A DNA stretch of 64,000 nucleotides, taken from positions 1 to 64,000 of the forward strand of contig CAWHCF010000040.1 of NCBI GenBank assembly GCA_963827655.1, given 5' to 3'. Positions within the stretch are counted from its first letter, which is position 1; each line of letters opens with the position of its first letter. The notes beneath the pieces are model-generated. The model worked only from the letters and a program-made list of their open reading frames with translations, made no database searches and was not told the DNA's origin. A program made the translations under genes and the position numbers. Positions 248-55,957 of this stretch are shown here, piece after piece. This stretch comes from an uncultured Acidobacteriota bacterium (GTDB lineage: Bacteria; Acidobacteriota; UBA6911).

Positions 248-472
248 TCACGGCCGCGCCGCGCTCGATCCGGTCAACCGCGCGACCTCGTGCGCGTGGC
301 GCTCGAAAGTCGCCAGCGACTCTGCGAATCGGCCCTCCTGGAACAGTCGATGTCCGTCCCGGCGCATGCCACGCAAGCGCTCGCGCGTCTCGGCCGGAAG
401 CGAGGCGAGGCGCCGCAGCCCCTCCGCAGTCCCGAGGAGTTGCTCGCGCGCCCGGAAGTACTCTTCCGGCAT
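248..472 (-). CDS. Hypothetical protein or gene remnant
   Basis: Helical, protein-like ORF MPEEYFRAREQLL...; no motif recognised; 5' end uncertain. Confidence 0.3.
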   Translation of the reverse strand: MPEEYFRAREQLLGTAEGLRRLASLPAETRERLRGMRRDGHRLFQEGRFAESLATFERHAHEVARLTGSSAARP

Positions 473-757
473 CCGCGGCAGCCTCTCCTTCGCCTGCGGC
501 AGGGAAGTTCGTGACAGGTTGAGGCGCGATGCGGCGCAGGCAATGGACCAGACTCGGATAATCGGCTGGATAACAACCGTTGACTACCCGTCGCGCTTCG
601 TGCCAGCATGAAATCCACTGCGCAATTTTCGGCGGCCACCGATGCCCCGCGCACGACCGCGAAAAGCTCCAGGAACTCTAGGCCCCTCTGATGTCCGAGG
701 TTGGAGTACAATGACCCCCTTGGACAAAACGCCGGAGGAATTCGCCGTAAGTAAGCC

Positions 758-1967
758 ATGACATCGAAGAAGCACAAGAAAGGCTCTCCCGTTGCCGCAC
801 GAAAACGGCGGCTGGTGGGTTTTCAGGTCCGTTGGCTGCTGGCGGTCGGCCTGCTCGTGGCTGCCGCCTCGGTGGCCGTCATCCTGAGCGCGTTCTGGTC
901 TCTCGAGCCCGCGCAAACCGGCGATTCCTCCGAGTCCTCCAGTAAAGCTCAACCATCCTCAGGTCCGGCGACATTCGCCCCAACCATCGCCAATACGGCC
1001 AGCGCGCCAGGTCCGGCGCCCCAGGGAATGGTGTGGATTCCCGGCGGCGAGTTCTCGATGGGTAGTCATGCTGAAAGCGAATCTCTCTGCGCTCTGCCTG
1101 GCTTGACCGGGGATGCTTTGCCGGTGCATCGAGTCTATATCGACGGGTTCTGGATGGATGCGACCGAGCTGACCAACGAAGACTTTGCCAGGTTTGTGAA
1201 AGCGACCGGGTACATGACCATCGCCGAACGCACGCCGACGGCAGCAGAGTTTCCGGGGGCGCCACCGGAGAAACTGGTTGCGGGTTCGACGGTATTCACG
1301 CCGGCAGCAAAGCCTGTGTCCCTGCAGATCACCTTCAATGGTGGCGTTATCAGAAGGGCGCCAACTGGCGCCAGCCCGAGGGGCCGGGGAGCACGATTCA
1401 CGGCCGCGAGCGATATCCGGTCGTCCAGATTGCCTATGACGATGCGGAGGCGTACGCGAAGTGGGCAGGCAAGCGTTTACCGACTGAAGCGGAATGGGAG
1501 TTTGCCGCCCGCGGCGGTTTGAGCGGAAAGCTCTATGTCTGGGGCGACGAGTTTCGTCCGGCGAAAAGGCGATGGCGAACACCTACCAGGGATCGTTTCC
1601 GGTGAAGGACACAGCCGGCGATGGCTTTGCCGGCATCGCACCAGTGGCGTCGTTTGCCCCGAACGGTTATGGACTCTACGACGTGGCCGGCAACGTGTGG
1701 GAGTGGGTCAGCGATTGGTATCGACCGGACTACTACGCGCAACTCGCCTCAGCGGGCGTCGTTGCGCGGAATCCACGCGGACCCGAATCGCCACTCGATC
1801 CCGCCGAGCCCGACACGAAGAAGCGGGTGCATCGCGGCGGTTCGTTCCTGTGCACCGATCAGTACTGCACGCGCTACATGGTCGGGACGCGCGGCAAAGG
1901 CGAAGTCAGCACCGCCAGCAACCATGTCGGCGTGAGATTGGTCAAGGACGCGAAACCCCGAGAGTAG
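758..1967 (+). CDS. Formylglycine-generating enzyme (FGE/SUMF1 family) with N-terminal TM anchor; two frameshifts (~1325, ~1560)
   Basis: [28 protein letters not shown] (middle frame), [27 protein letters not shown] across three frames. Confidence 0.9.
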
Positions 1968-2017
1968 CGGGCGGGATGCCCGACGGTAGGGGGAAACGGA
2001 GTGGAATCTATCGCCGA

Positions 2018-2300
2018 ATGAAAGAAATTGCCTCCGACGCATCCGAGCGAACTGCTGCGTAAGGAAATCATGCCGGCAGCCGGACTGACCCAGGACCGAC
2101 TTGCAACGCTCCCAGGTGTATCCAGGTTAACGATCAATGAGATTACGCGGGAGAAGCGTAGCGTGAAGGCGGATATGGCCCACCGCCTGGCGCGATTCTT
2201 TGGTACCACGCCGGAATTCTGGCTGGGTCTGCAGCAGGATGTCGATCTCTGGCAGGCGGCGCAGGATGGCTATGAGACACATCGGAAGATCAAGCCTTAG
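2018..2300 (+). CDS. higA: HigA-family antitoxin (HTH); start probably ATG 2018 with a 1-nt indel, or TTG 2028
   Basis: PPTHPSELL...LTQDRLA...MAHRLARFFGTTPEFWLGLQ..DLW matches the HigA pattern. Confidence 0.85.
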
Positions 2301-2417
2301 CCAAAAACGGCGTCTTGATCGGTCAGATACTCGGTAGCAATTCGCTCTCGGCAGCGACCTGACCTCGACGGATCGATGCCGCCCCCATCCCACGAATTGG
2401 CGGCGACGGTGCAGAAG

Positions 2418-3551
2418 CTATGCGGCGTCGGGCGGCTGCAGCCGCGAAAGATCCGGCAGAGTCTGGCTCAGCAAGATCAGCTCATCGCCTTCGCGCAACG
2501 GTCCCGCTTCCCCGCCAACCGGGTTGAGCATCATTGTTTCACCGCGATAGAGCCCGATGAGAAGGCACGCCTTCATATTCGTGCGATCGGGCAGGAACAC
2601 GTTTGCCGCTGCGACGAAATCCATCCCGACAAGTTGGGCAGGCACCGGCACCAGGTACATCTCGTTGGCGTCGCGCCGGACCGATAGCAGCTCTTGATAA
2701 ACGCGCGTCATGCCATGAAAGAGCGAGGCACGTGCCATCAGCCGCAATCCGAAGTCGGCGGCCGAGATGACTTCATCGGCACCCGCCTTGCGCATGTGCG
2801 GCCGGTATTTCGGATCCTGGCACTCGGCCACGATGTTTGGCTGGCGCTCTTGCACGCAAACGTTCTTGACGGCAATGCAGCACACGATGGTTTTTCCGTC
2901 GGCGTGCTGGTCCTGGCGGTCATCCGACAAGATGACGACGGAATGCGCTTGCGCAACCTTGGCGCGGCGCAGGATCACTTCGTTGGCTGGATCACCTTTG
3001 ACGATATAGACGTCGTTGAAGGCGGCTTCATCCTGTTTGTCAGGCAGCACGACTTCGTCGGGTGTGTCGTGAACGATCACGACTGGCCGCTTGTCGGTGA
3101 CGATACCGCTGTGCACTTCGCGTATCCAGTCTAGTGCTCGCGGCGACCAGTTGCACAGCACCAGATGGTCAGACATTTCAAGATTAGACACCTCACGACT
3201 CCTTAGTGAGCGTTCGATCAGGATCGACGCCACGCTGGCCGTGAACAAACCGGCCAAGGCGACACCGACGACAAGCACGGCGGAAACCACGAGCCGCCCA
3301 ACACGAGAGTTGGGCGCGTTGTTGAGTCCGCTGAAGAGGGTGACCCAGACGTTCCAGAGGGACTCGCGCAACGTCTCGAACGCTGGATTCGTGCCACGCT
3401 CCGCGAAGTGGAGTGCTGTGCCGCTGACGATCCAGATCACCACGATAGCGGTCAGGATTTTCCAGACTTGGTGGCGGTTCCACGCCGTTAGCACGCTCAG
3501 CAAGGTGTCGCGCCACGACGCCTTGTCCCGAACTCGGCCGAGCTCGCTCAA
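2418..3551 (-). CDS. Two-TM ion channel-like protein with RCK/TrkA-N and TrkA-C-like domains
   Basis: TM-pore helix-TM layout, then DHLVLCNW, GDPANEVILRRAKV, AGADEVIS; true start may lie slightly upstream. Confidence 0.8.
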   Translation of the reverse strand: MSELGRVRDKASWRDTLLSVLTAWNRHQVWKILTAIVVIWIVSGTALHFAERGTNPAFETLRESLWNVWVTLFSGLNNAPNSRVGRLVVSAVLVVGVALAGLFTASVASILIERSLRSREVSNLEMSDHLVLCNWSPRALDWIREVHSGIVTDKRPVVIVHDTPDEVVLPDKQDEAAFNDVYIVKGDPANEVILRRAKVAQAHSVVILSDDRQDQHADGKTIVCCIAVKNVCVQERQPNIVAECQDPKYRPHMRKAGADEVISAADFGLRLMARASLFHGMTRVYQELLSVRRDANEMYLVPVPAQLVGMDFVAAANVFLPDRTNMKACLLIGLYRGETMMLNPVGGEAGPLREGDELILLSQTLPDLSRLQPPDAA

Positions 3552-3757
3552 AGCCGAGCCTCTGCGCCGGAGCCATAACTCATGTCATTTTCCGTGTTCG
3601 AGGCTGTCACGATTAGGGCGAGCGGTAATTGTTTCCAGGCGGAAAGTCCGCCTGCAGGCGCACTTATTCGCCACGCTCATATTTCGTCAAGTCCCGCGTT
3701 CTTTGCACGCCATGAACAACCGGCAAAGAAGCACGACCGATTGCACACGGTACGCCA

Positions 3758-3910
3758 TTAGTCCGCCAGTCCGAAAACCACCACCGCGCCGCCCTGGCGG
3801 AAGCCCCAGAGCGAGTTGCCGCCGGCGGCCACCGCCACGTACTGCTTGCCGTCCACGGCATAGCTCACCGGCGGCGCGTTCACGCCCGCGCCGCAGTTGA
3901 AGGAATAAAG
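3758..3910 (-). pseudogene. C-terminal remnant of a PQQ-dependent dehydrogenase
   Basis: LYSFNCGAGVNAPPVSYAVDGKQYVAVAAGG...VVVFGL with no upstream PQQ-dehydrogenase body. Confidence 0.75.
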
Positions 3911-3960
3911 GAATAGGAAATTGCTTTCGGGGGTGGTGGGAGAATAGCATAGTTGGCCCG

Positions 3961-4182
3961 GATGGTCTGCTGAAATATCTCGGCGGTTGGGTGAGAGGCC
4001 TGTTTGGGAGGCGTTCAGTTTCGAGGAGTCCTCGGAGTCGCGGAGCGTCTCGTCGAATCGCCACGGGTCGCCGATCAGCGTTCTTCGCTCGACGTTAATG
4101 ATACGATCGTTCCTATCGGGTCTCATTGACAATGGGCAAGACGGTTGATTGTCCGAACGGGACTTTCATCAATAGCCAGCTA
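3961..4182. mobile_element. Possible degenerate ~220-bp IS-derived MITE
   Basis: Ends GATGGTCTGCTGAAAT... and ...TTTCATCAATAGCCAGCTA resemble the GCAGGCTGTTGA-type IS termini; imperfect inverted repeat, no clear target duplication. Confidence 0.3.
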
Positions 4183-5214
4183 CATTGCCTGAAACGCCGC
4201 CGCTGCCTGCTTCTCGCAGCACGACACTGTCGGTCCAATCGGCGATAGTTTGCGCGACCTGTGCCTCTTCACCGGTATACATGTGATCGGCATTCCGGAT
4301 CATGACAGTGTCCACCCGACTGGGACCGCTCCGTTGGCGCTGGATCGATGATTTGAGCAGTTCCAGGTCTTCCTCACTTCCGACATCTCCCCTCGTGCCG
4401 AAAAACGCGAGCAGTGGACAACGGATGCGCGTAACGCCGGGATTTACTGTCTGTGTCTGCACGCCGAAAAAGTCTTTGGATTCCGGCGGAGAGTTCGCGA
4501 TGTCCAAGAATGTCGCCGCGCTGATGTAGGAAGGGAAAGAGCGCTTCGGATCGCGTATCAACGCGTCCCCTTCGCCCGCAGCCATCAGGCGCTTGGCTTC
4601 CGCGAGCTGATCGGGGTCCGTCGGCCTGCTCTCGGCGCGAACTGCACCGGAAGCGAGTACCACTCCCACGACTCGTGAATCCTGCTTTTCAGCCTGATAG
4701 CTGCGCACCGCCGCCCAACCCGCGCTGTGTCCGACCAGAACCACCTGCTTGAAGCCCTGGTCCTCGGCGAAGTCGATCCAGGCGGCAAGGTCTCGGACTT
4801 CCTCACCTGCTACACCCCAGTAACCTCCGCCGCGGATCCGCTTTCCGTGTCGGTACCCGGCGAATTGCCGAGATCGTGCATGCGCGTGTTTCCACTGATC
4901 GTTGCATAGCCGCGCGCCGCGAGCGCTCGGCCGATCATCACGTACGTCGGAGAGTAGAAGTTAGTTCCCCATCCATGGATCCAGATGACAGCGATGGGTT
5001 TGCCTGAAGGCTTCGACGCCGTGAACATCGCGCCCCCATTCACGATGTCGTCCATCGAACGAACGTAGACGAGTTCTTCGGGGAACTTCCCAGCTGTTAC
5101 GGTTACGGCACGCGGCGCGTACCGGTGCCAAAGCAGGAAGGTCGTCCCGATTAAAGCGAGGACTGCAATTATCACGGTAAGTCGTCGGCGTGTGGTCCAA
5201 TCTTGTAGATGCAT
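4169..5214 (-). CDS. Alpha/beta hydrolase (DUF1749-like) with N-terminal TM; one frameshift near 4860
   Basis: IWIHGWGTNFY oxyanion motif, GHSAG nucleophile elbow, NADHMY catalytic His; RBS GGAGG. Confidence 0.85.
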
Positions 5215-5267
5215 CGCTCCTCCGCCGCTTCGAGCTATCTACGCGACCGGTGCATAAGTTTTCGTGC

Positions 5268-5321
5268 GGCTAACGTTGCGTTCACCCGCGCGGAGCGGTC
5301 AAGTGCAACGCGGGGTTGGCT
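5268..5321 (-). other. Solo integron attC-like recombination site
   Basis: Minus strand AGCCAAC-N5-GTTGCAC...GTGAAC-N5-GTTAGCC: R''/L''/L'/R' spacing with one extrahelical base; 54 bp, slightly short for attC. Confidence 0.6.
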
Positions 5322-5440
5322 GGCCGAAACTAGGCTGGCGCCTGGAGCCGACAGGCGCTGACGAGACCTATGCGGACTTGGATACGCGACCTGAACAGGT
5401 GAAGGTCAACGCGAAGAGTCGGCTCGCCGTGACGGCCCAC

Positions 5441-6295
5441 TTACTGAACAGCAATTGCATCGTAGTGAATTCGTTCCTTCCCGATGCCTTTAGAGTCAAG
5501 CACCTTCACCACTTCGCGCACCATGATTGGCGGTCCGGCGAGATAGGCGTCGGCATCCGACGGCGCCGCGACGTGCTTTTCGACGACCGAGTGGATGAAG
5601 CCGGTCTCCCCATGCCAGTTATCTTCGGGCGCAGGACTCGACAGCGCGGGAATGTAGCGGAACTTTGTTTTCGTCCGCGCCCATTCCTGAAAGCGTTCGT
5701 GCCAGAACAGGTCTTTTCGGCCGCGCACGCCGAAGAAAAAGTAGATCTCGTTGTTCTTGTCGAAACCGTTCTCGAACCAGTACTCGAGCAGCGAGATAAA
5801 CGGCGCAACTCCGGTGCCACCGGCGACGATCACAATCGGACGACCCGTGTCCTTTCTCAAATAGAGACTTCCGCCGGCGCGCTGAAGCTGCACCACATCT
5901 CCCGGCTTCAATTGCGCGTGGACGTAGGTCGTCGCAATTCCCGGCGGAACCTCTTTCCCCGGCGGCGATCCTGCGAGCTTGATCATCAGGTCGAAGCTGG
6001 GCAGCCGGCTCGAGCTGCTGGCAAACGAGTACGGGCGCGTCACCTCTCCGTGAGTGGTCCCGTAGCGCGCATTCCACTGTTTGACGTAATCGTCAGGAAC
6101 CTTCAGAAACGTGTACTGTCCGGGAGTGAATAAAAAACCCTTCGCGTCCAAAAGGCGGAAGCGGATGCGTTTGGTGTCGTGAGTCAGGTCCTCGATCTCG
6201 ATCACCTTGGCGCGATAGGGATAGCTGTCGGCAAGAAGATTGACGCTGCAGCCGAGCCACAGCGCGAATAATCCGAAGGTGCGGCGATTCAGCAT
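5441..6295 (-). CDS. FAD/NAD(P)-binding ferredoxin-reductase-type oxidoreductase (NqrF C-terminal-like) with possible Tat signal
   Basis: FTPGQY, RPYSFAS, VPPGIATTY, VAGGTGVAP, AYLAGPPIMV; N-terminus NRRTFG plus hydrophobic stretch. Confidence 0.85.
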   Translation of the reverse strand: MLNRRTFGLFALWLGCSVNLLADSYPYRAKVIEIEDLTHDTKRIRFRLLDAKGFLFTPGQYTFLKVPDDYVKQWNARYGTTHGEVTRPYSFASSSSRLPSFDLMIKLAGSPPGKEVPPGIATTYVHAQLKPGDVVQLQRAGGSLYLRKDTGRPIVIVAGGTGVAPFISLLEYWFENGFDKNNEIYFFFGVRGRKDLFWHERFQEWARTKTKFRYIPALSSPAPEDNWHGETGFIHSVVEKHVAAPSDADAYLAGPPIMVREVVKVLDSKGIGKERIHYDAIAVQ

Positions 6296-6304
6296 TTGCT
6301 CTGA

Positions 6305-7037
6305 TCAGACCGGCTTGCGCCACAGGATGGAAAGATCGTCCTTCGGCCGGAAGCCGAGGACCCGCTTGGCTTTTTCATTGATGAACTTCCCGTGCGGCAT
6401 GTCGGAGAAAACGAAGAAAATCTCGCATCGCGACGGCAGCTTCGCCAGGTCGATCTCCAGGCCGAGCCGGAATATCTGCACCCGCATCTCCCCATGAGAC
6501 CGAAAACGGTGTTGCGTCCGTGCCCGGCGTGAGTTTGCCCATGTCGAGAAGCGAGAAGAATAGATATTCCTGGACGTAAACATCATGGTGTTGCGAAAAA
6601 ACGCGGCAGATCTCCTGACCCAGCGACTTACTCAAACCATACAGATGGGTGCCGGGCTGCGGCGGTTGATCCGGCCCTACCCTGAAATCGAACCGTTCGG
6701 ATGGCGGACCCGAGACCACCAGGTGCGGTCCGGTATTGATCACTCGTCTGATATTCTGCTCCACGGCCGCGAGCATCATGTTGTAACAGCCGCGCGTGTT
6801 CACGTCGAACGCCAGCTTGCGGTCGTTGCGCAAAACCGAGAGGTTCACGATGGCGTCCATGCCCCGGGCCGCTTTGCGGACTTGCTCGATCGACGAAATA
6901 TCCACGTGCATGTATTCGTGACGCGTCTTCTCCGCCGGCGGTCGGATGTCGGTGATGCGCAACTCGTGTCCCGACTCCAGCGCCTTGACAACATGTGGAC
7001 CAAGATACCCGGTTGCGCCGAGAAGCAGTACCTTCAT
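6305..7037 (-). CDS. NAD-dependent epimerase/dehydratase (extended SDR); frameshift near 6495
   Basis: MKVLLLGATGYLG, YGLSK catalytic motif; C-terminus AKRVLGFRP in the adjacent frame. Confidence 0.85.
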
Positions 7038-23734: not shown

Positions 23735-25066
23735 CTAGAGAACCTCGGCGCCGCGGCCCTGCTGCACCAGGGGCATATAGGTTTCAAGCTCCTGCTGGGT
23801 TCCCGGATCCAATAAGTCTACCGTGCGCCGCGATTCGGCGGCCATGTAAGCTGCCATGACCAGCCTGGTTATCTCCAGGCCATAACTCCAGGGGAGAAAT
23901 CCGTCCCGGCCGGCGTTGAAAGCCCGGAGCGCATCTTCATTCTCGTCGGTATAGCCGTACAGGTCAGCCTCGTTATACTGCACGGCTATCAGCCCGCGCG
24001 TTGCCGTGGCCTTTTCGAGCGCGGCCTCGGCATCCTTGATCGCTTCAGCGGCCGCATCGCCGATAAAGAGGGTCGAAGGCGAAACCAGTGTATTCACCTC
24101 GAAGGCGTAGCCCGGCCCCATGCCGTCCATGAACAGGCGCAGCCCCTGCTTTTCGAACATCCAGGAATTTGTAAACTGGGCTTTGACCTTTTGCCCGGTC
24201 TCGGGATTCCGGTAGGTGATTATTCCGGTGGCGAAGTCTTCAGCCGGATGCTTTGAGTAATCGATCCCGCGTTCATTGAGCAATTTCGCTCGCCAGTTCG
24301 GCTGTCCCCATTTCAGGAGCCCGATCTCCGCGGAAACGCTCACAGGCTGCAGGAAGGTTATTTCCTTGCCGGGCGGGTTGAGCGCGAACCAGCTCGCCGC
24401 GATGCTGTGACACCCCATGTCGCTGAGCACTCCGCCCCCCTGGCGCGTGGGATCCCAGAACCAGGCCTCATGCGGCCCGGCGTGCTCTTCGGACGATCGG
24501 ACCAAAGCCAGAGGACCCATGGTTCGCTGGACCGGTTCCAGCTGCGCCAGCTGTGTGCGGATGGGCTTCATGAAGACCTGGTTCTCGAAGTAGGCCGTGC
24601 GAAGATTCACCGATTGAGAAAGTTGGATCAGGCGCCGGGCTTCCGCGACCGTACGTCCCAAGGGTTTTTCGCAGATGACCCCCTTCAACTCGGCCCCGGC
24701 TTTCACGGCCGCCACGATCTCTTCCATCACCGGAATGCGCGTGTAGTTCGGCGAGAAGATGGCCACGCAGTCGACCTGCCTGGCCATTTCGTACACGCTG
24801 TTGAAGACCCGGGGTTCGCCCAGTCCGAAGTCCCGGGCCATCCGTGCGACGGCCGGTGTGCCTTTGCGCTGGGTGAGGGCGCAGAATTCCATGCCGCGCA
24901 CCTGCTTCATCGCTACCGCCTGGAAGCGGGTGATGAATCCCGCTCCCACCACTCCGACCCTCAGGGGATTGCGGGTTGCGGATTGCGGATTAGGGATCTT
25001 TTCGATTGCGGATTGCGGATTGCGGATTGCGGATTTTCTCGATTGCGGATTGCGGATTGAAGGCAT
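23735..25066 (-). CDS. Gfo/Idh/MocA oxidoreductase with an N-terminal repeat-derived SAIRNPQ extension
   Basis: LRVGVVGAGFI, ICEKPLG, GGGVLSDMGCH. Confidence 0.9.
   Translation of the reverse strand: MPSIRNPQSRKSAIRNPQSAIEKIPNPQSATRNPLRVGVVGAGFITRFQAVAMKQVRGMEFCALTQRKGTPAVARMARDFGLGEPRVFNSVYEMARQVDCVAIFSPNYTRIPVMEEIVAAVKAGAELKGVICEKPLGRTVAEARRLIQLSQSVNLRTAYFENQVFMKPIRTQLAQLEPVQRTMGPLALVRSSEEHAGPHEAWFWDPTRQGGGVLSDMGCHSIAASWFALNPPGKEITFLQPVSVSAEIGLLKWGQPNWRAKLLNERGIDYSKHPAEDFATGIITYRNPETGQKVKAQFTNSWMFEKQGLRLFMDGMGPGYAFEVNTLVSPSTLFIGDAAAEAIKDAEAALEKATATRGLIAVQYNEADLYGYTDENEDALRAFNAGRDGFLPWSYGLEITRLVMAAYMAAESRRTVDLLDPGTQQELETYMPLVQQGRGAEVL
24966..25060 (+). repeat. GATTGCG heptamer array inside the 5' end of the oxidoreductase ORF
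   Basis: Multiple tandem GATTGCG units with short interruptions. Confidence 0.9.
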
Positions 25067-25279
25067 GGCATCAATGGATACGCAGGAGGCTCAAGAAAGT
25101 CAATCTGTATCTGGTACCCGCTCCCGCACCTGTTTCCCGATTGCCTGGAAGCGGGACCGATTGTCATTTATGTCTAATGACAGATGACCAATGACAAGAC
25201 CAATGAGAAAATCGGATTTCGGATTGAAGGCATTACATCAAGGGATACGCAGAAATTCGACAAGGTCAATCCGCAATCG

Positions 25280-26899
25280 TCAAATCGAATGGTTCTGGAA
25301 TTGAACCCGCAACAGTTTCTTGTCGAATTTTCCCACGCTGGTCTTGGGCACCGACTCAATAAACACCACGTCATCCGGGAGCCACCAGCGCGCGACCCGC
25401 GGCCGCAGGAATTGGAGCACGTGTTCTTTGGTCAGCGTCCCCTTGTACTGCGGCTTGGGCACGACGCAAGCCAACGGTCGCTCCTGCCACTTTGGATGCG
25501 GAACAGCGATAACGGCGGCTTCCAGAACCTGAGGATGCGCCATGATGGCAGTTTCCAGATCAACACTTGATATCCACTCCCCCCCGCTCTTGACCAGGTC
25601 CTTGGTTCTGTCCGCGATGTGGATATAGCCATTCTGGTTGATCGACACCACGTCGCCGGTGCGGAACCAGCCGTCCATGAAGGAATCGGCGCTTCGCGGA
25701 TCGTTGTAGTAGCTCCGGATGATCCAGGGCCCTCGCACCTGAAGCTCGCCCAGGGTCTTGCCATCCCAGGGGACCTCCTTTCCGTTCTCGTCGACGGCGC
25801 GGATCTCCACTCCGGGCAAGGGCGCTCCCTGAAGCGCGAGGACGCCGTACTGCTCGTCTTCAGGCCAATTCTTCATGAAGCCGCGAAGCTTCGAGACGGT
25901 TCCGAGCGGAGTCATCTCGGTCATTCCCCAGGCCTGGCAGATGTTGATACCGAATTTCTTCCTGAAGCCTTCGATCATGCTCTGCGGAACAGCCGAACCG
26001 CCGCACGGGCATATGCGCAGACTGGACAAATCGTATTGCTCCTGCTCCAGAACAGAAAGGAGGCCGATCCAGATCGTGGGCACGCCGGCGGCGAGTGTGA
26101 CCCGCTCCTGCTGAATCAGCTCAGCCAGGGCCTTGGGCTGGAGATTCGGACCGGGAAAAACCTGCTTGGCCCCCACCATCGTGGCGCAGTAGGGAATTCC
26201 CCAGGCGTTAGCGTGGAACATCGGCACTACGGGCATGACCACATCGGTTTCGCAAATGCCGAATGCGTCAGCCATGGCATGAGCCATGGAATGCAGATAG
26301 ACGGCGCGGTGGCTGTAAACCGCTCCTTTCGGGTTTCCCGTGGTGCCGGAGGTGTAGCACATCGCGGCAGCCGAATTCTCGTCGAGCTGCGGCCAATCGA
26401 ATTCAGAAGAGGCCCGGGCCAGCAGCTCTTCATAATGAAGAATGGGTGAGAGTGAGGTGACGCTCCCGCCGTCTTCGTTCATGACCACAATGTGCCGGAT
26501 GCTTGGCACCATAGGGCGGAACTGCTCGAGGAGTGGAAGCAGGTTCTGATCGACAAAGATAACTGCGTCCTCCGCATGGCTGGCGATGAACCCGATCTGC
26601 TCGGGAATGAGTCTCAAGTTCAGGGTGTGCAGGACCGCTCCGTAACAAGGAGCGCCAAAATAGATTTCGAGGTGACTAAAGGTGTTCCATCCGAGCGTGG
26701 CGACACGTTCTCCCGGTTTCACGCCCAACTCCCGAAGCACGTTGGCGAGGCGGCAGACACGATGGTAAAAATCGGCATAGCTGTATCGGTGAGTTTCCAC
26801 GGCGCCTCGGGTAACGATCTCCTGCCGGGGAAAAAGCTGCCGGGCCCGTTGCAGAATCATCGTTAGAGTGAGCGGAAAATCCATCATCAGGCCTTGCAT
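25280..26899 (-). CDS. Long/medium-chain fatty-acid--CoA ligase (AlkK/DmdB-like)
   Basis: MCYTSGTTGNPKG, AWGMTEMTP, FRTGD, DRTKDLVKSGGEWISS. Confidence 0.95.
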   Translation of the reverse strand: MQGLMMDFPLTLTMILQRARQLFPRQEIVTRGAVETHRYSYADFYHRVCRLANVLRELGVKPGERVATLGWNTFSHLEIYFGAPCYGAVLHTLNLRLIPEQIGFIASHAEDAVIFVDQNLLPLLEQFRPMVPSIRHIVVMNEDGGSVTSLSPILHYEELLARASSEFDWPQLDENSAAAMCYTSGTTGNPKGAVYSHRAVYLHSMAHAMADAFGICETDVVMPVVPMFHANAWGIPYCATMVGAKQVFPGPNLQPKALAELIQQERVTLAAGVPTIWIGLLSVLEQEQYDLSSLRICPCGGSAVPQSMIEGFRKKFGINICQAWGMTEMTPLGTVSKLRGFMKNWPEDEQYGVLALQGAPLPGVEIRAVDENGKEVPWDGKTLGELQVRGPWIIRSYYNDPRSADSFMDGWFRTGDVVSINQNGYIHIADRTKDLVKSGGEWISSVDLETAIMAHPQVLEAAVIAVPHPKWQERPLACVVPKPQYKGTLTKEHVLQFLRPRVARWWLPDDVVFIESVPKTSVGKFDKKLLRVQFQNHSI

Positions 26900-46643: not shown

Positions 46644-47432
46644 ATGAAAGTGTTTGGGAAGCTGGTATTGCTCGTCGCTGTCGTTGTCGTGTTCGCTCCG
46701 GCAAGTTCCTCCCAGGGGGAACAGAAACTGCTATTTCTGACTCATTCCGCCGGGTTCAAACACGCCGTCATTCCGCTTGCAGAAAAGATCATGCCGGAGA
46801 TTGGGAAGAGCCTGGGAGGCTTCCAGACTACTGTCACGCAAGACTGCTCGGTGATCAATGAGAGCAACCTGAGGAATTACAGCGCAGTGATGTTCTATAC
46901 CACGGGTGAACTTCCCATCAGTGAGGAAGGAAAGAAGGCGCTGCTCGACTTCGTCAAGAGCGGAAAGGGGTTTGTCGGTGTTCACTCGGCCACGGATACT
47001 TTCTACAAGTGGCCCGAGTATGGCGAGATGATTGCAGGTTATTTCGACCGACATCCCTGGCACACTGACGTGACCGTCCGGGTCGAAGATCGGTCATTCC
47101 CCGCCACGGCTCATCTGGGAGAGTCTTTCAAGATCAAGGATGAAATCTATCAGTTCAAGAACTGGTCGAGAGAAAAGACTCACGTCCTGCTCAGCCTGGA
47201 TCCCAACTCCGTCGACCTGAATGCCAAAGACGTCCATCGAACTGACAAGGACTTCGCGCTTGCCTGGGCACATCCATACGGGAAGGGCAGGGTCTTCTAT
47301 TCCGCCCTGGGGCATCGCGACGAGGTGTGGCAGGACGAGCGCTTTCAGAAATTTCTCGTGAATGGCATCTTGTGGGCGATGGGGGTAAAGAAGAGCGAAG
47401 TCAAGATCGGAAATCCTCAGCCGTCGCGCTGA
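46644..47432 (+). CDS. Secreted ThuA-domain protein
   Basis: SAGFKH, GKGFVGVHSATD, DEIYQF, YGKGRVFYSALGH. Confidence 0.9.
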   Translation: MKVFGKLVLLVAVVVVFAPASSSQGEQKLLFLTHSAGFKHAVIPLAEKIMPEIGKSLGGFQTTVTQDCSVINESNLRNYSAVMFYTTGELPISEEGKKALLDFVKSGKGFVGVHSATDTFYKWPEYGEMIAGYFDRHPWHTDVTVRVEDRSFPATAHLGESFKIKDEIYQFKNWSREKTHVLLSLDPNSVDLNAKDVHRTDKDFALAWAHPYGKGRVFYSALGHRDEVWQDERFQKFLVNGILWAMGVKKSEVKIGNPQPSR

Positions 47433-47495
47433 TCTCAATCTGAACCAGTGGCTCCCCCAACATACTCTAGATAAAAGTACGAGGCGACTACTCCT

Positions 47496-48714
47496 ATGCT
47501 CAAAGGCCGGATTTCTCGAATTCTGTTCTTTATACCGCTGTTCTTGCTGCTACGCTCGTTTCCCCTCTGGGCTCACGGCGACAAGGTGATTCCGCAAGTG
47601 TTCGACGGGGGCGGGGTTGGTCGCACCAAGTTCGATCTCACCAATTTGAGTCCCGAGTTTCCCATCACCAAGGTAAGTGTTCTGTTCTTCCGCCAGGATG
47701 GCAGCCCCTGGTCCGTAACCACCAATCAAGGTACCGGGACCAGCTTCAATCTGAACATCGGTCCGTTCCAGACGATCCGAATCGAGACCACGGGCGCGAG
47801 CCCAAGCTTGACGGTCGGGTATGCGATCGTTCGAAACACGGAGCGCACCACACAATTTGCCGAGGACTTCGAAGTGGCTATCACGGTGTTTTTTGAAATT
47901 CTCAATGGGCCGAATGTGGTCGACACCGTCAGCGTTCCGGTTGGTCAGCCTACCGTTTCATTCGCATTTCCCGTGGAGATGGACAATGCCGTCAATCTGT
48001 TCACGGGGTTCGCCATTGTGAACCTCACCGACGCCGACAACAACGTCGCGCTCACGCTCTATGAGTCCACGACCTCCGGAAGCAGCGATCCCTCCGCCCG
48101 ATTCGGGAATGGTGAATCTCACGCTGAACTCGCGACAGCAAAGAGCGCAGTTTCTCAACGAGAGCAACCTCTTCCCGACCAGGACGAAATTCAAGGGCAT
48201 GTTGCTTGGCTTTGCCTCCGGGCCGGTTGCCATTCTTGCGCTGCTTCAGACCGGCACGCCCTTTGGTGTTCAGTTCGCCACGCTGGTGCCTGCGTATCAG
48301 GATGCCCTGCGGCGGAACACGCACATGTACCTGCAGCAGGGCCTCCCGCTCGATGCGGATCTCCCGATATCGGACTATACGGGCAACACCGAGGACAGCG
48401 CACCATGGGATATCCTTTACGAGACCCTGAATCCCACGACGCGGCGGCTTGCCCCCCAGGGGAGCGCGATGGTTGCCCCGATCGGCTTGCGCAGTGACAA
48501 CCAGTTCGACAACGAAGTCACTCTGGAGTTCCTGCAGGGGCTGACATACAGCTCGACGCCCATCGATATGAGCAACGGCTCTCCGAACCTGGCAAGCGGC
48601 TTTACCTTCGCCATTCAGACCGGACTGAAGCGCTTTGTCAAAGTCCGGGTTTCCGTGTTCGTTACACAGGTGAATGACCGGCACCTGGTCCTGGAGATGG
48701 AAGTGTACCGGTAG
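47496..48714 (+). CDS. Secreted hypothetical beta-rich protein; frameshift near 48090
   Basis: Signal peptide then IPQVFDGGG..TKFDLTN, TGFAIVN; continues in the ORF 48061-48714 frame. Confidence 0.7.
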
Positions 48715-48940
48715 GATTTACGATTGACGATTTACGATTGACGATTGAAATAGCGGAGTCCACAATCATCCGCTTCAATCGGCAATCGTCAATCGTAAAT
48801 CGTCAATCCTAAGTCAGCCGGCCAGGTTTTGGAGATGGAGGTTTACCGGTAGCGGATTTTACCATTGACGATTTTGGCGGGCGGTTATTGTCGACTCTGC
48901 AGTTCAATCGTCAATCGTCAATCGTCAATCGTCAATCGTC
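48715..48940. repeat. Two tandem GATTGAC/GATTTAC heptamer hairpins separated by a diverged copy of the upstream gene end
   Basis: Arms at ~48715-48749 / 48775-48808 and ~48854-48875 / 48904-48940; duplicate at 48818-48852. Confidence 0.88.
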
Positions 48941-49438
48941 GTCGGCCAGGTCGCGAAGGATCGATGGCGTCAGAAGCCATACCATCGTGCCGCGGGGTTG
49001 GGGAATCAAAGTTTCAAGGTCTATCGCGCAGCCTCCCCCTTTCTTGAGCTCAACATAACTTTCCGCCGAGCCCCAGGCGATCTCGCCGGCTATTTCTCCC
49101 AGAGAAGGCTGGTGGCCTACAAGCATCAACTCGTCTTCGTCCTTGAAGGACTGAATCGCTTTGTAGACGTCAGGTCTCTTTCCTGAAGGTGAAAGCGCCT
49201 GAAGTTGCTTGAGGTTGGTTTTCGAACCGAGAACTTTGCCGACGATTTCGGCTGTCTGCCACGCTCTTGGCAAAGGGCTGCTCAATATTGTCCGCGGCGT
49301 GATCCCCAATTGGTTCAGACCCGCCGCAGCCTTCTTCATTTTTTTGATGCCGTCAGGAGTCAGGGGCCGGTCATTCTCCGCCACTCCGCTGGTTCCGTGA
49401 GGGACCGCGATGGCGTGGCGGACGATGTATAGTCGCAT
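48932..49438 (-). CDS. sixA: Phosphohistidine phosphatase
   Basis: MRLYIVRHA, DRPLT..G, SSPLPRAWQTA, LVGHQP, ELKKGG. Confidence 0.92.
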   Translation of the reverse strand: MRLYIVRHAIAVPHGTSGVAENDRPLTPDGIKKMKKAAAGLNQLGITPRTILSSPLPRAWQTAEIVGKVLGSKTNLKQLQALSPSGKRPDVYKAIQSFKDEDELMLVGHQPSLGEIAGEIAWGSAESYVELKKGGGCAIDLETLIPQPRGTMVWLLTPSILRDLADDD

Positions 49439-49439
49439 G

Positions 49440-50465
49440 CTATCCCTCGACCTTTTGAGTCGGCTCGGCCTCGACGGAAACCGGAGAGGATTCATCGGTT
49501 TGAAGCATCGCCCGCAATGCTGCTTGAAGCTGGGTCAGGGCGGGCAGCATCTTCTTCCTTAGTTCGGCCCTCTGATCTTGCGCCTGTGACAGAAGCCTGC
49601 CGAGTTGAAAGGCCAGATGAGTAGTCTCTTGTTTCGTGAGCCGGCGAATTTCCTTCTGCAGGGTCTCACGAAGGACAGACCAGTCGTGGTAATGACCACC
49701 GGCGTCCTGCAGCGCTCGCGCGAGCGCGATCTCCTTATCCAGCCCGGAAGGAAATGCCGGACTGAAGATCTCTAACCCGTAACGAAGTTTCTTGGCGGCG
49801 ATTCGCAGGTCGTGAAGTTGCTGATCCGTGGCCCCGCGGAAATCGTAACGCGCGCGGAACGAGAGGATGGGAGCCGAGAGTTCTTCCAGGACACGCCGGC
49901 CTCTTCCGGTCGGCTCCTGCTGCAACCGAAACAAACTAAGTTGAGGAGCATTGCCGCGCTTCGCGGCAGGCCGGCCGCCGGCGTTGGGGAGCGAACCTTC
50001 AAGGTCCTCGAAAGGACCTAAGTTTGACAAAAGGAATTGGGTCTTCGAACGGAGCTCGCGCAGATTGATTTCACGTAAACTCTTTTTGAGTTTCCGCTTC
50101 CGTTTCTGGAGTGTCTTTTGAAAGCGCTGTTCCAGATACTCGCGGCAGAGGTTTTCAGCCATGTCGCCCGAACCGGTTTGTTCCTTCAGGAGGGACAACG
50201 AAACCTCGGTTTCCCGGGCTTTCCCCAGAGCCTTCGTTACCTGGCGCGCGCGGCTGTAGACGGCGTTCCAGGGATGAGGAGGAAAAAGGTCTTTGAAAGC
50301 TTCCAGCGCCGCTCGCATCCGGCGTGATTGGACGCGGGTGTCATGAATCGATTCTTCGTCGGGGCGCCGTTTGAGGCGGGTCAGTTCTTCGACCAGGGAA
50401 CCCATGCGCTCACGCAAGATCATGCGCGCAAGAGCCTCCTCGAGTTCTTCCGGGAATGGTTTCAT
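49440..50465 (-). CDS. CHAD domain (polyphosphate-binding) protein
   Basis: IHDTRVQSRRMRA, LHDLRIAAKKLRY, LQDAGGHYHD. Confidence 0.9.
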   Translation of the reverse strand: MKPFPEELEEALARMILRERMGSLVEELTRLKRRPDEESIHDTRVQSRRMRAALEAFKDLFPPHPWNAVYSRARQVTKALGKARETEVSLSLLKEQTGSGDMAENLCREYLEQRFQKTLQKRKRKLKKSLREINLRELRSKTQFLLSNLGPFEDLEGSLPNAGGRPAAKRGNAPQLSLFRLQQEPTGRGRRVLEELSAPILSFRARYDFRGATDQQLHDLRIAAKKLRYGLEIFSPAFPSGLDKEIALARALQDAGGHYHDWSVLRETLQKEIRRLTKQETTHLAFQLGRLLSQAQDQRAELRKKMLPALTQLQAALRAMLQTDESSPVSVEAEPTQKVEG

Positions 50466-55921: not shown

Positions 55922-55957
55922 CGATTTACGATTGACGATTTACGATTGACGATTGAA
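55922..55957 (+). repeat. GATTTAC/GATTGAC heptamer arm directly after the ppk1 stop
   Basis: gatttacgattgacgatttacgattgacgattgaa, same as the arm at 48715. Confidence 0.88.

Follow-up and report, generated by a model that had tools for sequence, protein, structure and literature searches.

The DNA analysed here (the window) is a stretch of 64,000 nucleotides (nt) from contig C40 of the genome of an uncultured Acidobacteriota bacterium, G000 (8.18 Mb in 53 contigs, 90% completeness), and coordinates without a contig name are window positions. Within it, gene A, which encodes a secreted protein, and a gene for a sixA-like histidine phosphatase face each other. The stretch in which they meet holds a second copy of the gene A 3′ end, a relic of the sixA 3′ end and two hairpins whose arms are tandem heptamer arrays. 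We find that these parts lie head to tail, as two successive units of gene end, hairpin and facing gene end, and that one hairpin is inverted relative to the other and to the hairpin of an orthologous allele.

Repeated gene ends and hairpins between gene A and sixA

Along the forward strand the order is A1 / H1 / B′|A′ / H2 / B1, where A1 and B1 denote the outer gene ends, A′ and B′ the inner relics, H1 and H2 the hairpins, and L and R their arms. The features are as follows (ORF, open reading frame).

47496..48714, forward strand: gene A, secreted protein (ORFs 47496..48497 and 48061..48714)
48684..48714, forward strand: A1, the functional gene A 3′ end and copy 1 of a 31-nt repeat (E1, 48688–48714, encodes VLEMEVYR*)
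48715..48808, no strand: hairpin 1 (H1), with array L1 (48715–48749), loop 1 (48750–48773) and array R1 (48774–48808)
48814..48827, reverse strand: B′, sixA 3′ end relic, (AC)CTG GCC GGC TGA = LAG*, with its own in-frame stop
48822..48852, forward strand: A′, spare untranslated gene A end (E2, 48826–48852; the junction with B′ lies in GGT, 48825–48827)
48853..48940, no strand: hairpin 2 (H2), with degenerate array L2 (48853–48876), loop 2 (48877–48902) and array R2 (48903–48940)
48932..49495, reverse strand: B1, sixA-like histidine phosphatase (Pfam His_Phos_1, E 1e-09)

E1, which closes the forward-strand ORF 48061..48714, reads GTC CTG GAG ATG GAA GTG TAC CGG TAG, and E2 reads GTT TTG GAG ATG GAG GTT TAC CGG TAG. 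The letters thus bear out the initial annotation, which had reported a recurrence of VLEMEVYR* at 48826–48852 with four synonymous differences; three of the four fall at third codon positions and one at a first position (CTG/TTG). A repeat finder extends the match to 31 nt (48684–48714 against 48822–48852; 26/31, 84% identity). The fifth difference within this longer repeat, CTG/CAG, is non-synonymous, and we read its position as the duplication join itself. The match between the copies exceeds chance, a local direct repeat this strong (score 18.5; threshold at least 17) being present in 2 of 670 random regions and at 9 of 1,000 array-free gene ends. A search for a paralogous or ectopic source found no further copy of E1, E2 or either loop in the genome. 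Between E1 and E2 lie a 94-nt hairpin and a 17-nt spacer; 48715–48825 holds no ORF of at least 40 amino acids (aa) and no integrase or cargo separates the gene-end copies, and the short frame of A′ has a stop at 48796–48798. A GATTGAC-array hairpin comes after each copy, and the sixA stop (TCA, 48932–48934) lies within the last arm (48903–48940), both as initially described.

The spacer between the hairpins, directly upstream of the spare gene A end, contains a fossil sixA end with its old stop. After R1 the forward strand reads CTAAG TCAGCCGGCCAGGT TTTGGAG…, and the reverse strand of 48814–48825 reads CTG GCC GGC TGA, that is, LAG*. The CGGCCAGGT of B′ is identical to 48943–48951 of the living sixA, and the nine letters GCCGGCTGA are identical in the sixA end of the related locus L005. 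Among 13 related loci with sixA nearby, two (L004 and L005) have a sixA that ends LRALAG*, and the other related sixA genes end one to three residues past LRxL (for example, LRKLA*). The living sixA of the window ends LRDLADDD*, its GAC GAC GAT TGA coming from the R2 array; the arrays seem to rewrite C-termini.

B′ (48814–48827) directly abuts the A′ relic (48826–48852), which creates a novel junction where the distal end of the unit is joined to its proximal start. Gene A reads CCTGGTC at the corresponding place, sixA reads CCAGGTC and the junction reads CCAGGTT, so the microhomology amounts to the common GGTC or to six of seven letters. A1 and A′ are 138 nt apart and B′ and B1 are 124 nt apart, the 14-nt difference being equal to two heptamers. 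Direct alignment of 48684–48821 with 48822–48951 pairs the 31-nt gene end, the starts of the arms, the R arms and the tail. The head-to-tail order of A1 / H1 / B′|A′ / H2 / B1 therefore points to a tandem duplication of [A end / hairpin / B end], and the order B′|A′ argues against an insertion with target duplication.

An inverted hairpin and the spare copy in other samples

H1 folds strongly (−55.3 kcal/mol, z −10.9) and H2, taken alone, weakly (−31 kcal/mol, z −2.1); in the minimum-energy fold of the whole stretch, L1 pairs with R2 and R1 with L2. Both R arms are 35 nt long and begin TTCAATC. The two loops had been described as different, which is so only when both are read on one strand. 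Aligned forward, the loops do no better than chance (score −6, shuffle mean −7.1; local score 4 versus 4.4), a result that had made the hairpins seem different. Turning one loop round overturns it: once reverse-complemented, loop 1 agrees with loop 2 at 17 of 20 positions with one gap, and the score of 12 (shuffle mean 5.2) is reached by a fraction 0.0002 of 5,000 shuffles.

An outside reference for the two loops came from a protein-guided scan of metagenome contigs, which yielded one close relative, L138 (protein identity 93%; DNA identity 91.8% over 609 nt); an exact-pattern scan of metagenome contigs for either gene end returned no stretches. The gene A of L138 ends GTT CTG GAG ATG GAA GTC TAC CGC TAG, and its TAG is followed by CGG and then by an H2-type hairpin with the loop in the orientation of loop 2; the contig stops 12 nt past the R arm of this hairpin. 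Both the hairpins and the duplicate are absent from 19 family- or class-level relatives.

Loop 1 matches the L138 loop as its reverse complement at 20 of 21 positions, a value that none of 5,000 shuffles reached, and only at chance level in the forward direction, and loop 2 matches the L138 loop in 21 of 24 columns in the same orientation. Over the whole hairpin, L138 is 82% identical to H1 when H1 is reverse-complemented, 69% identical to H1 read forward and 77% identical to H2. The irregular arm unit beside the loop also switches sides, being GATTTTC in L138 and GATTGCC in the reverse complement of R1. These loop and arm-unit matches in reverse complement indicate that H1 is the same hairpin as H2, inverted whole, and the loop of H1 is thus reverse-complemented relative to the orthologous allele with the arms kept. 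The H1 stem reaches into the flanking TAG/CTA (48712–48811), an extension present in G000 only and absent in L138. Rfam gave only two matches, both below threshold and both to precursor hairpins of plant miRNAs (37 and 25 bits, where the gathering thresholds are 135 and 230), which we take as generic long-hairpin resemblance, and a terminator scan found no terminator with a T-tract.

We aligned the contigs of four public soil and rhizosphere runs on 47400–49600. Among public sequencing runs the best share of sampled words was 0.40 and none reached half, and uncovered bins in single runs carry no meaning. These are k-mer contigs in which array bins have a depth of 250–6,400, against 5–15 elsewhere, and paths through arrays may be shortcuts. 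Several strains, at 85–99% likeness, co-occur in the soil samples.

Two contigs from two other samples carry the spare copy. Record 29 of X3 (190 nt) covers 48727–48922 in the order L1 / loop 1 / R1 / B′A′ / L2 / loop 2 / R2, with 15 other letters and 13 gaps, and record 22 of X2 (249 nt) covers 48809–49049 in the order B′A′ / H2 / sixA. In both, an array and not the body of gene A precedes the spare copy, which argues against a merge of haplotypes by the assembler, an artefact that the initial annotation had named as an outcome that would overturn it; R1 / spare copy / L2 and spare copy / H2 / sixA both occur in other public runs. The spare copies of both records have G at 48843, the letter of E1, which shows that the GTT of E2 arose within the non-coding spare copy. 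The X3 spare copy lacks a stop and shows four further substitutions, an insertion of 2 nt and a deletion of 1 nt, lesions that indicate free drift.

Record 21 of X2 (501 nt) joins 48398–48746 to 48893–49049 with 21 letters between them. It would be a single-hairpin form linking gene A and sixA, the count of letters in between being one that would suit the L138 loop, or it may be an array shortcut. Most joints from L1 to R2 with foreign letters were set aside as other hairpins of the family placed on shared arms.

The related contigs also bear on the flanking genes. In the strain of L138 and X3, sixA has the tail LATDSD* and likewise runs into the array. Gene A has no Pfam match, and its homologues are open frames of 400–470 aa that align to it in frame 1 and then in frame 2, switching at about 48100. 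The assembly has gene A in two parts, separated by a +1 frame change near 48075–48101. The X3 contig is one base short at 48085, which would restore the frame, and the gene is intact in L138, with a 412-aa open frame; the frame change is either a consensus error or a strain-specific pseudogene.

The heptamer repeat family and its duplicates across the genome

Under one rule, the genome contains 381 tandem arrays of period 7, against 0–10 for periods 5, 6 and 8–11. A looser rule gives 547 arrays in 335 clusters, with GATTGAC (294), GATTGCG (80) and GATTTAC (50) as units. Paired arrays have a nearly fixed polarity: GATTGAC…loop…GTCAATC (‘−+’) accounts for 84 clusters and the opposite order (‘+−’) for one. 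The stop of a long ORF abuts or overlaps solo arrays in the GATTGAC sense in 37 of 97 and 43 of 112 cases, against 13 of 97 and 18 of 112 in the other sense and about 5% at random, and long-ORF stops occur at about 46% of paired-cluster sides. Beyond this genome, the exact 28-mer (GATTGAC)×4 is present in at least 117 genome stretches from many phyla, a few isolates among them, with source labels that include Bacteroidota, Acidobacteriota, Planctomycetota, Chloroflexota, Gemmatimonadota, Nitrospirota, Desulfobacterota, Verrucomicrobiota and others.

Genes of the family PF05635 (‘23S rRNA intervening sequence protein’) tend to lie near arrays: 7 of 11 have an array within 400 nt, against 924 of 20,000 random intervals, and 3 of 11 lie between −…+ arms. 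Comparison of the outer flanks of the 335 clusters gave no target-duplication signal, the best matches being no better than those of 1,675 random controls. No link to RAYT was seen either, the sole match to Y1_Tnp (PF01797; C35:41745–42074) being 15.9 kb from the nearest array. A solo array at 55923–55957 has no inverted partner nearby, and its 35 letters equal arm L1 (48715–48749); the identical 35-mer at 48715 and 55923 suggests that whole arms are copied between loci and not grown locally.

We next consider duplicates beside these arrays, defined, with arrays masked, as a local direct repeat scoring at least 17 within 150 nt of a cluster; ends of ORFs of at least 300 aa with no array within 600 nt served as the array-free control. 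Such duplicates occur at 10 of 335 clusters, compared with 2 of 670 random regions (Fisher p 5e-4) and 9 of 1,000 array-free gene ends (odds ratio 3.4, p 0.013), so that the enrichment near the repeats for which the initial annotation had proposed a check is present. Most are tandem units of 120–225 nt that hold an array and a gene end, and the younger examples have near-identical copies. C22:320150–320650 is a younger twin of the architecture at 48684–48951: the ends of its two convergent genes recur there as A1 / L / B′ / A′ / H / B1, with frame-breaking indels in the inner copies. At C26:290540/290660 (290535–290776), a 120-nt tandem unit, whose copies differ once, comprises a GATTGAC-type array and the 99 nt that close a PF05635 gene; this PF05635 gene sits between inverted heptamer arms. 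Elsewhere, 22 nt of a gene end and the intergenic region are repeated (C17:57040/57196), 46 nt of a gene end are repeated with one indel (C43:33818/33962) and, on C1, a 5′ region is repeated. Spare copies carry indels at five of the eight other loci.

A further case, C10:238686 versus 238911 (238600–239000), is situated between two heptamer hairpins, where 80 nt from the interior of the adjacent gene (541 aa) are present as a spare copy. The copy is 87% identical, with one indel, and has no closer paralogue in the genome than the neighbouring gene.

Within the window, a complex cluster of GATTGCG and AATGACN arrays occupies 24966–25290. There, two copies of a module of some 35 nt (GGATTGAAGGCAT…GGATACGCAG) lie 166 nt from each other, and motifs of the neighbouring gene end (GCCTGGAAGCGGG, CCCGCTCCC) recur within the cluster, which may be a second relic of the same kind.

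Origin of the duplicated unit and comparison with known systems

The reading that we favour, with a probability of roughly 0.7, is an old local tandem duplication of about 130 nt that took in the whole inter-gene unit and was followed by inversion of H1, decay of one arm and a takeover of the sixA stop by the array. In the ancestral state, a gene A end, one heptamer-array hairpin and a sixA end would have lain between convergent genes; the convergent order of gene A and sixA is also present in relatives. By replication slippage or a template switch, …CGGCCAGGT, which lies a little inward of the sixA end, would then have been connected back to …CCTGGT(C/T), located nine codons ahead of the gene A stop, through the microhomology GGT(C), or six of seven letters in CC[A/T]GGTC. 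The repetition of the unit of about 130 nt would yield A1 / H1 / B′|A′ / H2 / B1, in which only the outer A1 and B1 would be read and the inner B′ and A′ would be untranslated relics. Later, H1 would have been inverted whole, perhaps as its inverted arms recombined with each other or as the polymerase switched template from one to the other; the L2 array would have decayed; the living sixA would have lost its old stop and run into the R2 array, which supplied DDD and TGA; and the relic A′ would have gained a few substitutions that are synonymous by chance. Head-to-tail order together with 3–4 nt of microhomology is the product expected of local slippage or template switching. Unequal sister exchange could have taken the place of slippage, the order of events may have been as given, and the hairpin may have promoted the duplication.

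The divergence of the copies fits an old event in situ: E2 has three changes in 27 nt and E1 has one, and G000 and L138 differ at 33 of 203 third positions. In the initial annotation the duplicated unit had already been seen as a gene end plus hairpin and linked to the repeats, and both points stand. Its further proposal, that the spare copy evolved as coding sequence in another allele and was displaced or imported ‘rather than’ produced by simple slippage, is not supported: 48843 changed within the spare copy, the two hairpins are one hairpin of which one copy is inverted, and a relic of the facing gene is present. Import from another allele need not be invoked, and most of the evidence contradicts it.

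The synonymous differences require a closer look. Across the eight codons, 17 of 72 possible single changes are synonymous (0.24, or 0.29 with transition bias). With free drift in the spare copy and only synonymous changes tolerated in the living one, the probability that a change is synonymous is about 0.38–0.44, and four of four has P 0.02–0.04. When L138 serves as the outgroup, E1 has acquired one of the changes (GTT>GTC) and E2 the other three; three of three synonymous on the spare copy has P 0.013–0.023, and when 48843 is counted as a late change of the spare copy, two are left (P 0.06–0.08). The all-synonymous pattern is thus roughly a 2–8% coincidence under drift. As the case was picked as striking and the genome holds about ten comparable duplicates, we regard this as an unremarkable coincidence and not as proof of a coding history. 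A genome-wide synonymous excess, which had also been suggested as a test, was sought in eight other comparisons, which give 13 synonymous against 14 non-synonymous changes; the count shows no excess over a mixture expectation of 0.41 (P 0.30) and an excess over pure neutral drift at 0.26 (P 0.011), and is not decisive.

Several observations weigh against a local duplication followed by drift. Four of four synonymous substitutions in eight codons strain the model, to a modest degree. The polarisation by L138 is not rigorous, the L138 contig ending before the number of units is visible, and if the duplication predates the split from L138, changes on the E2 branch are inseparable from changes on the coding stem. 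No listed contig runs from unique gene A through both hairpins into sixA; the arrays are common to hundreds of loci, and contigs that pass through them, the single-hairpin bridge included, can be chimeric. At C10, eight of the nine substitutions are at third positions (P 0.001), which simple drift in situ does not predict. Pooled over loci, third positions account for 15 of 21 substitutions (P 0.015 against an expected 0.455), and for 7 of 12 without C10, which is not significant; C44:49322/49404 was omitted from this count as ambiguous, both copies touching an ORF, and its inclusion gives 18 of 31 (P 0.11).

The alternative that survives best is an unequal exchange between diverged alleles, in which DNA of a related strain would have recombined with the resident locus at this GGT microhomology and E1/H1/B′ and E2/H2/B1 would come from different coding alleles. 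This would account for the all-synonymous differences without coincidence and for the third-position excess, at C10 and pooled; B′ and B1 would each be a plausible sixA end with an in-frame stop, and diverged strains do co-occur in the soil samples. Such an exchange, however, depends on foreign DNA and on an illegitimate join; a sister chromatid, by contrast, is available at any time. Neither hairpin looks foreign, the two being about equally close to L138 (82% and 77%), and no living gene end of the E2 type occurs in L138 or among the listed differences of the contigs that cover E1. The change at 48843 within the spare copy and the insertion, deletion and lost stop in X3 are marks of free drift, and the third-position excess depends on C10. 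The excess at C10 is the main reason why we grant this history a small share of the probability and consider it unlikely. A broader proposal seems to us just as doubtful: the hairpins might be engines of gene-end turnover that repeatedly duplicate, invert and collapse a few dozen bases to each side of them and rewrite last codons and stops, so that spare ends were living ends for part of their history, through unequal exchange, also between diverged strains. If true, it would explain the coding-type differences both here (four of four synonymous) and at C10 (eight of nine at third positions).

It is improbable that gene A and sixA were first copied entire in a large tandem duplication, with the copies of both working for a while, and that a later microhomology-mediated deletion left short relics. 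The final layout would be the same, E2 would have been under coding constraint while its synonymous changes accrued, and the deletion junction would show microhomology too. This route nevertheless needs two rare events in place of one, large duplications normally collapse by homologous recombination, which restores a single unit, and the younger examples in the genome are small units of 120–225 nt with near-identical copies.

Very improbable, in turn, is the footprint of a mobile element, left either by a hairpin whose insertion duplicated a long target or by an integrating element that brought its own gene-end copy in the manner of an attachment site: the heptamer hairpins do form a dispersed family of 335 clusters, share an identical 35-mer arm at 48715 and 55923 and in some copies enclose a PF05635 gene (3/11), but no target-duplication signal rises above control at these clusters, just 111 nt without integrase or cargo lie between the copies, the facing gene end is repeated too in an order wrong for insertion with target duplication, and L138 already has a hairpin at this site. 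An assembly artefact, with two strain haplotypes strung together at shared arrays, might be suspected of a genome that in its 53 contigs and 90% completeness resembles a metagenome bin and for which one public contig has a single-hairpin form, but we hold it to be just as far-fetched, since X3 record 29 and X2 record 22 have array or loop 1 / R1 and not the gene body before the spare copy, a sixA relic and not gene A sequence lies upstream of E2, and a merge of haplotypes would not invert one hairpin.

A local tandem duplication at the hairpin therefore remains our preferred account, and it makes the locus a readable fossil of the effects that these bacterial repeats, a widespread and unexplained class, have on neighbouring DNA. 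Within 260 nt it would display microhomology-mediated duplication, inversion of a whole hairpin, decay of an array and replacement of a stop by a repeat. Single- and double-unit forms apparently coexist in soil populations, which would make the rates and polarities of heptamer-hairpin dynamics testable. A practical warning also follows: short ‘extra’ gene ends beside such repeats are relics, and neither genes nor evidence of import.

Among known systems, one that resembles this locus is the icd gene of Escherichia coli, where e14 and phage 21 leave a spare icd 3′ end at integration. There, as here, spare and mostly synonymously diverged last codons lie shortly downstream of the living end; unlike that case, the present locus has no integrase or cargo, the facing gene end is repeated as well, and the layout is head to tail. 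The repetitive extragenic palindromic (REP) sequences and bacterial interspersed mosaic elements (BIME; also REPIN) of Proteobacteria resemble the heptamer hairpins as dispersed palindromes that follow gene ends and are associated with local rearrangement, but differ in that there is no link to RAYT here and that the arms here are tandem heptamers. Shyamala et al. in 1990 reportedly placed REP sequences at the join points of tandem duplications.

The arrays belong to a long-noticed class of heptameric intergenic repeats, which also includes the short tandemly repeated repetitive (STRR) sequences of cyanobacteria. Intergenic GGGNATC heptamers are described from Xanthomonas and Nostoc, where they contain G-tracts, form quadruplexes and prefer four units (Rehm et al. 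2015, PMC4692102), and TAACTGA heptamers from Beggiatoaceae (PMC4679880). In the portions of these two accounts that we draw on, the repeats share with ours the 7-nt units, the short arrays and the dispersed, intergenic positions within tens of bases of sense-strand stops, and duplicated gene ends are not mentioned. Our arrays differ from both in being mostly inverted pairs of fixed polarity (84 against 1), and from the GGGNATC repeats, as far as that account was available to us, in their units GATTGAC, GATTGCG and GATTTAC, which lack G-tracts and are therefore not of the quadruplex-forming kind. A narrow literature search found nothing on duplicated gene ends at heptamer hairpins.

For the proposed duplication, the nearest parallel lies in the junctions of E. 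coli lac amplifications, for which, in the part of the study consulted, imperfect homology of 4–15 bp, units of 7–32 kb, REP palindromes sometimes at the junctions and an inferred template switch are given (Slack et al. 2006, PMC1428787). Both cases show a direct head-to-tail repeat with a novel junction at a few bases, here GGT(C) or six of seven. By contrast with those amplifications as excerpted, the unit here is about 130 nt long and old, with 15% divergence in the coding relic, the hairpin lies inside the unit, and selection for amplification is not evident. For the inversion, polymerase template switching between inverted repeats yields an inverted spacer and homogenised arms, according to the section of the account used here (PMC8604942). 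As in that process, the loop of H1 is the reverse complement of the orthologous loop with the arms kept, and its stem has grown to TAG/CTA; the arms here, in distinction from those described in that section, are 35-nt tandem heptamer arrays long enough for ordinary recombination. Set beside these systems, the locus is ordinary in mechanism and unusually well preserved, a case new in itself of processes already known, at a repeat family that is poorly understood.

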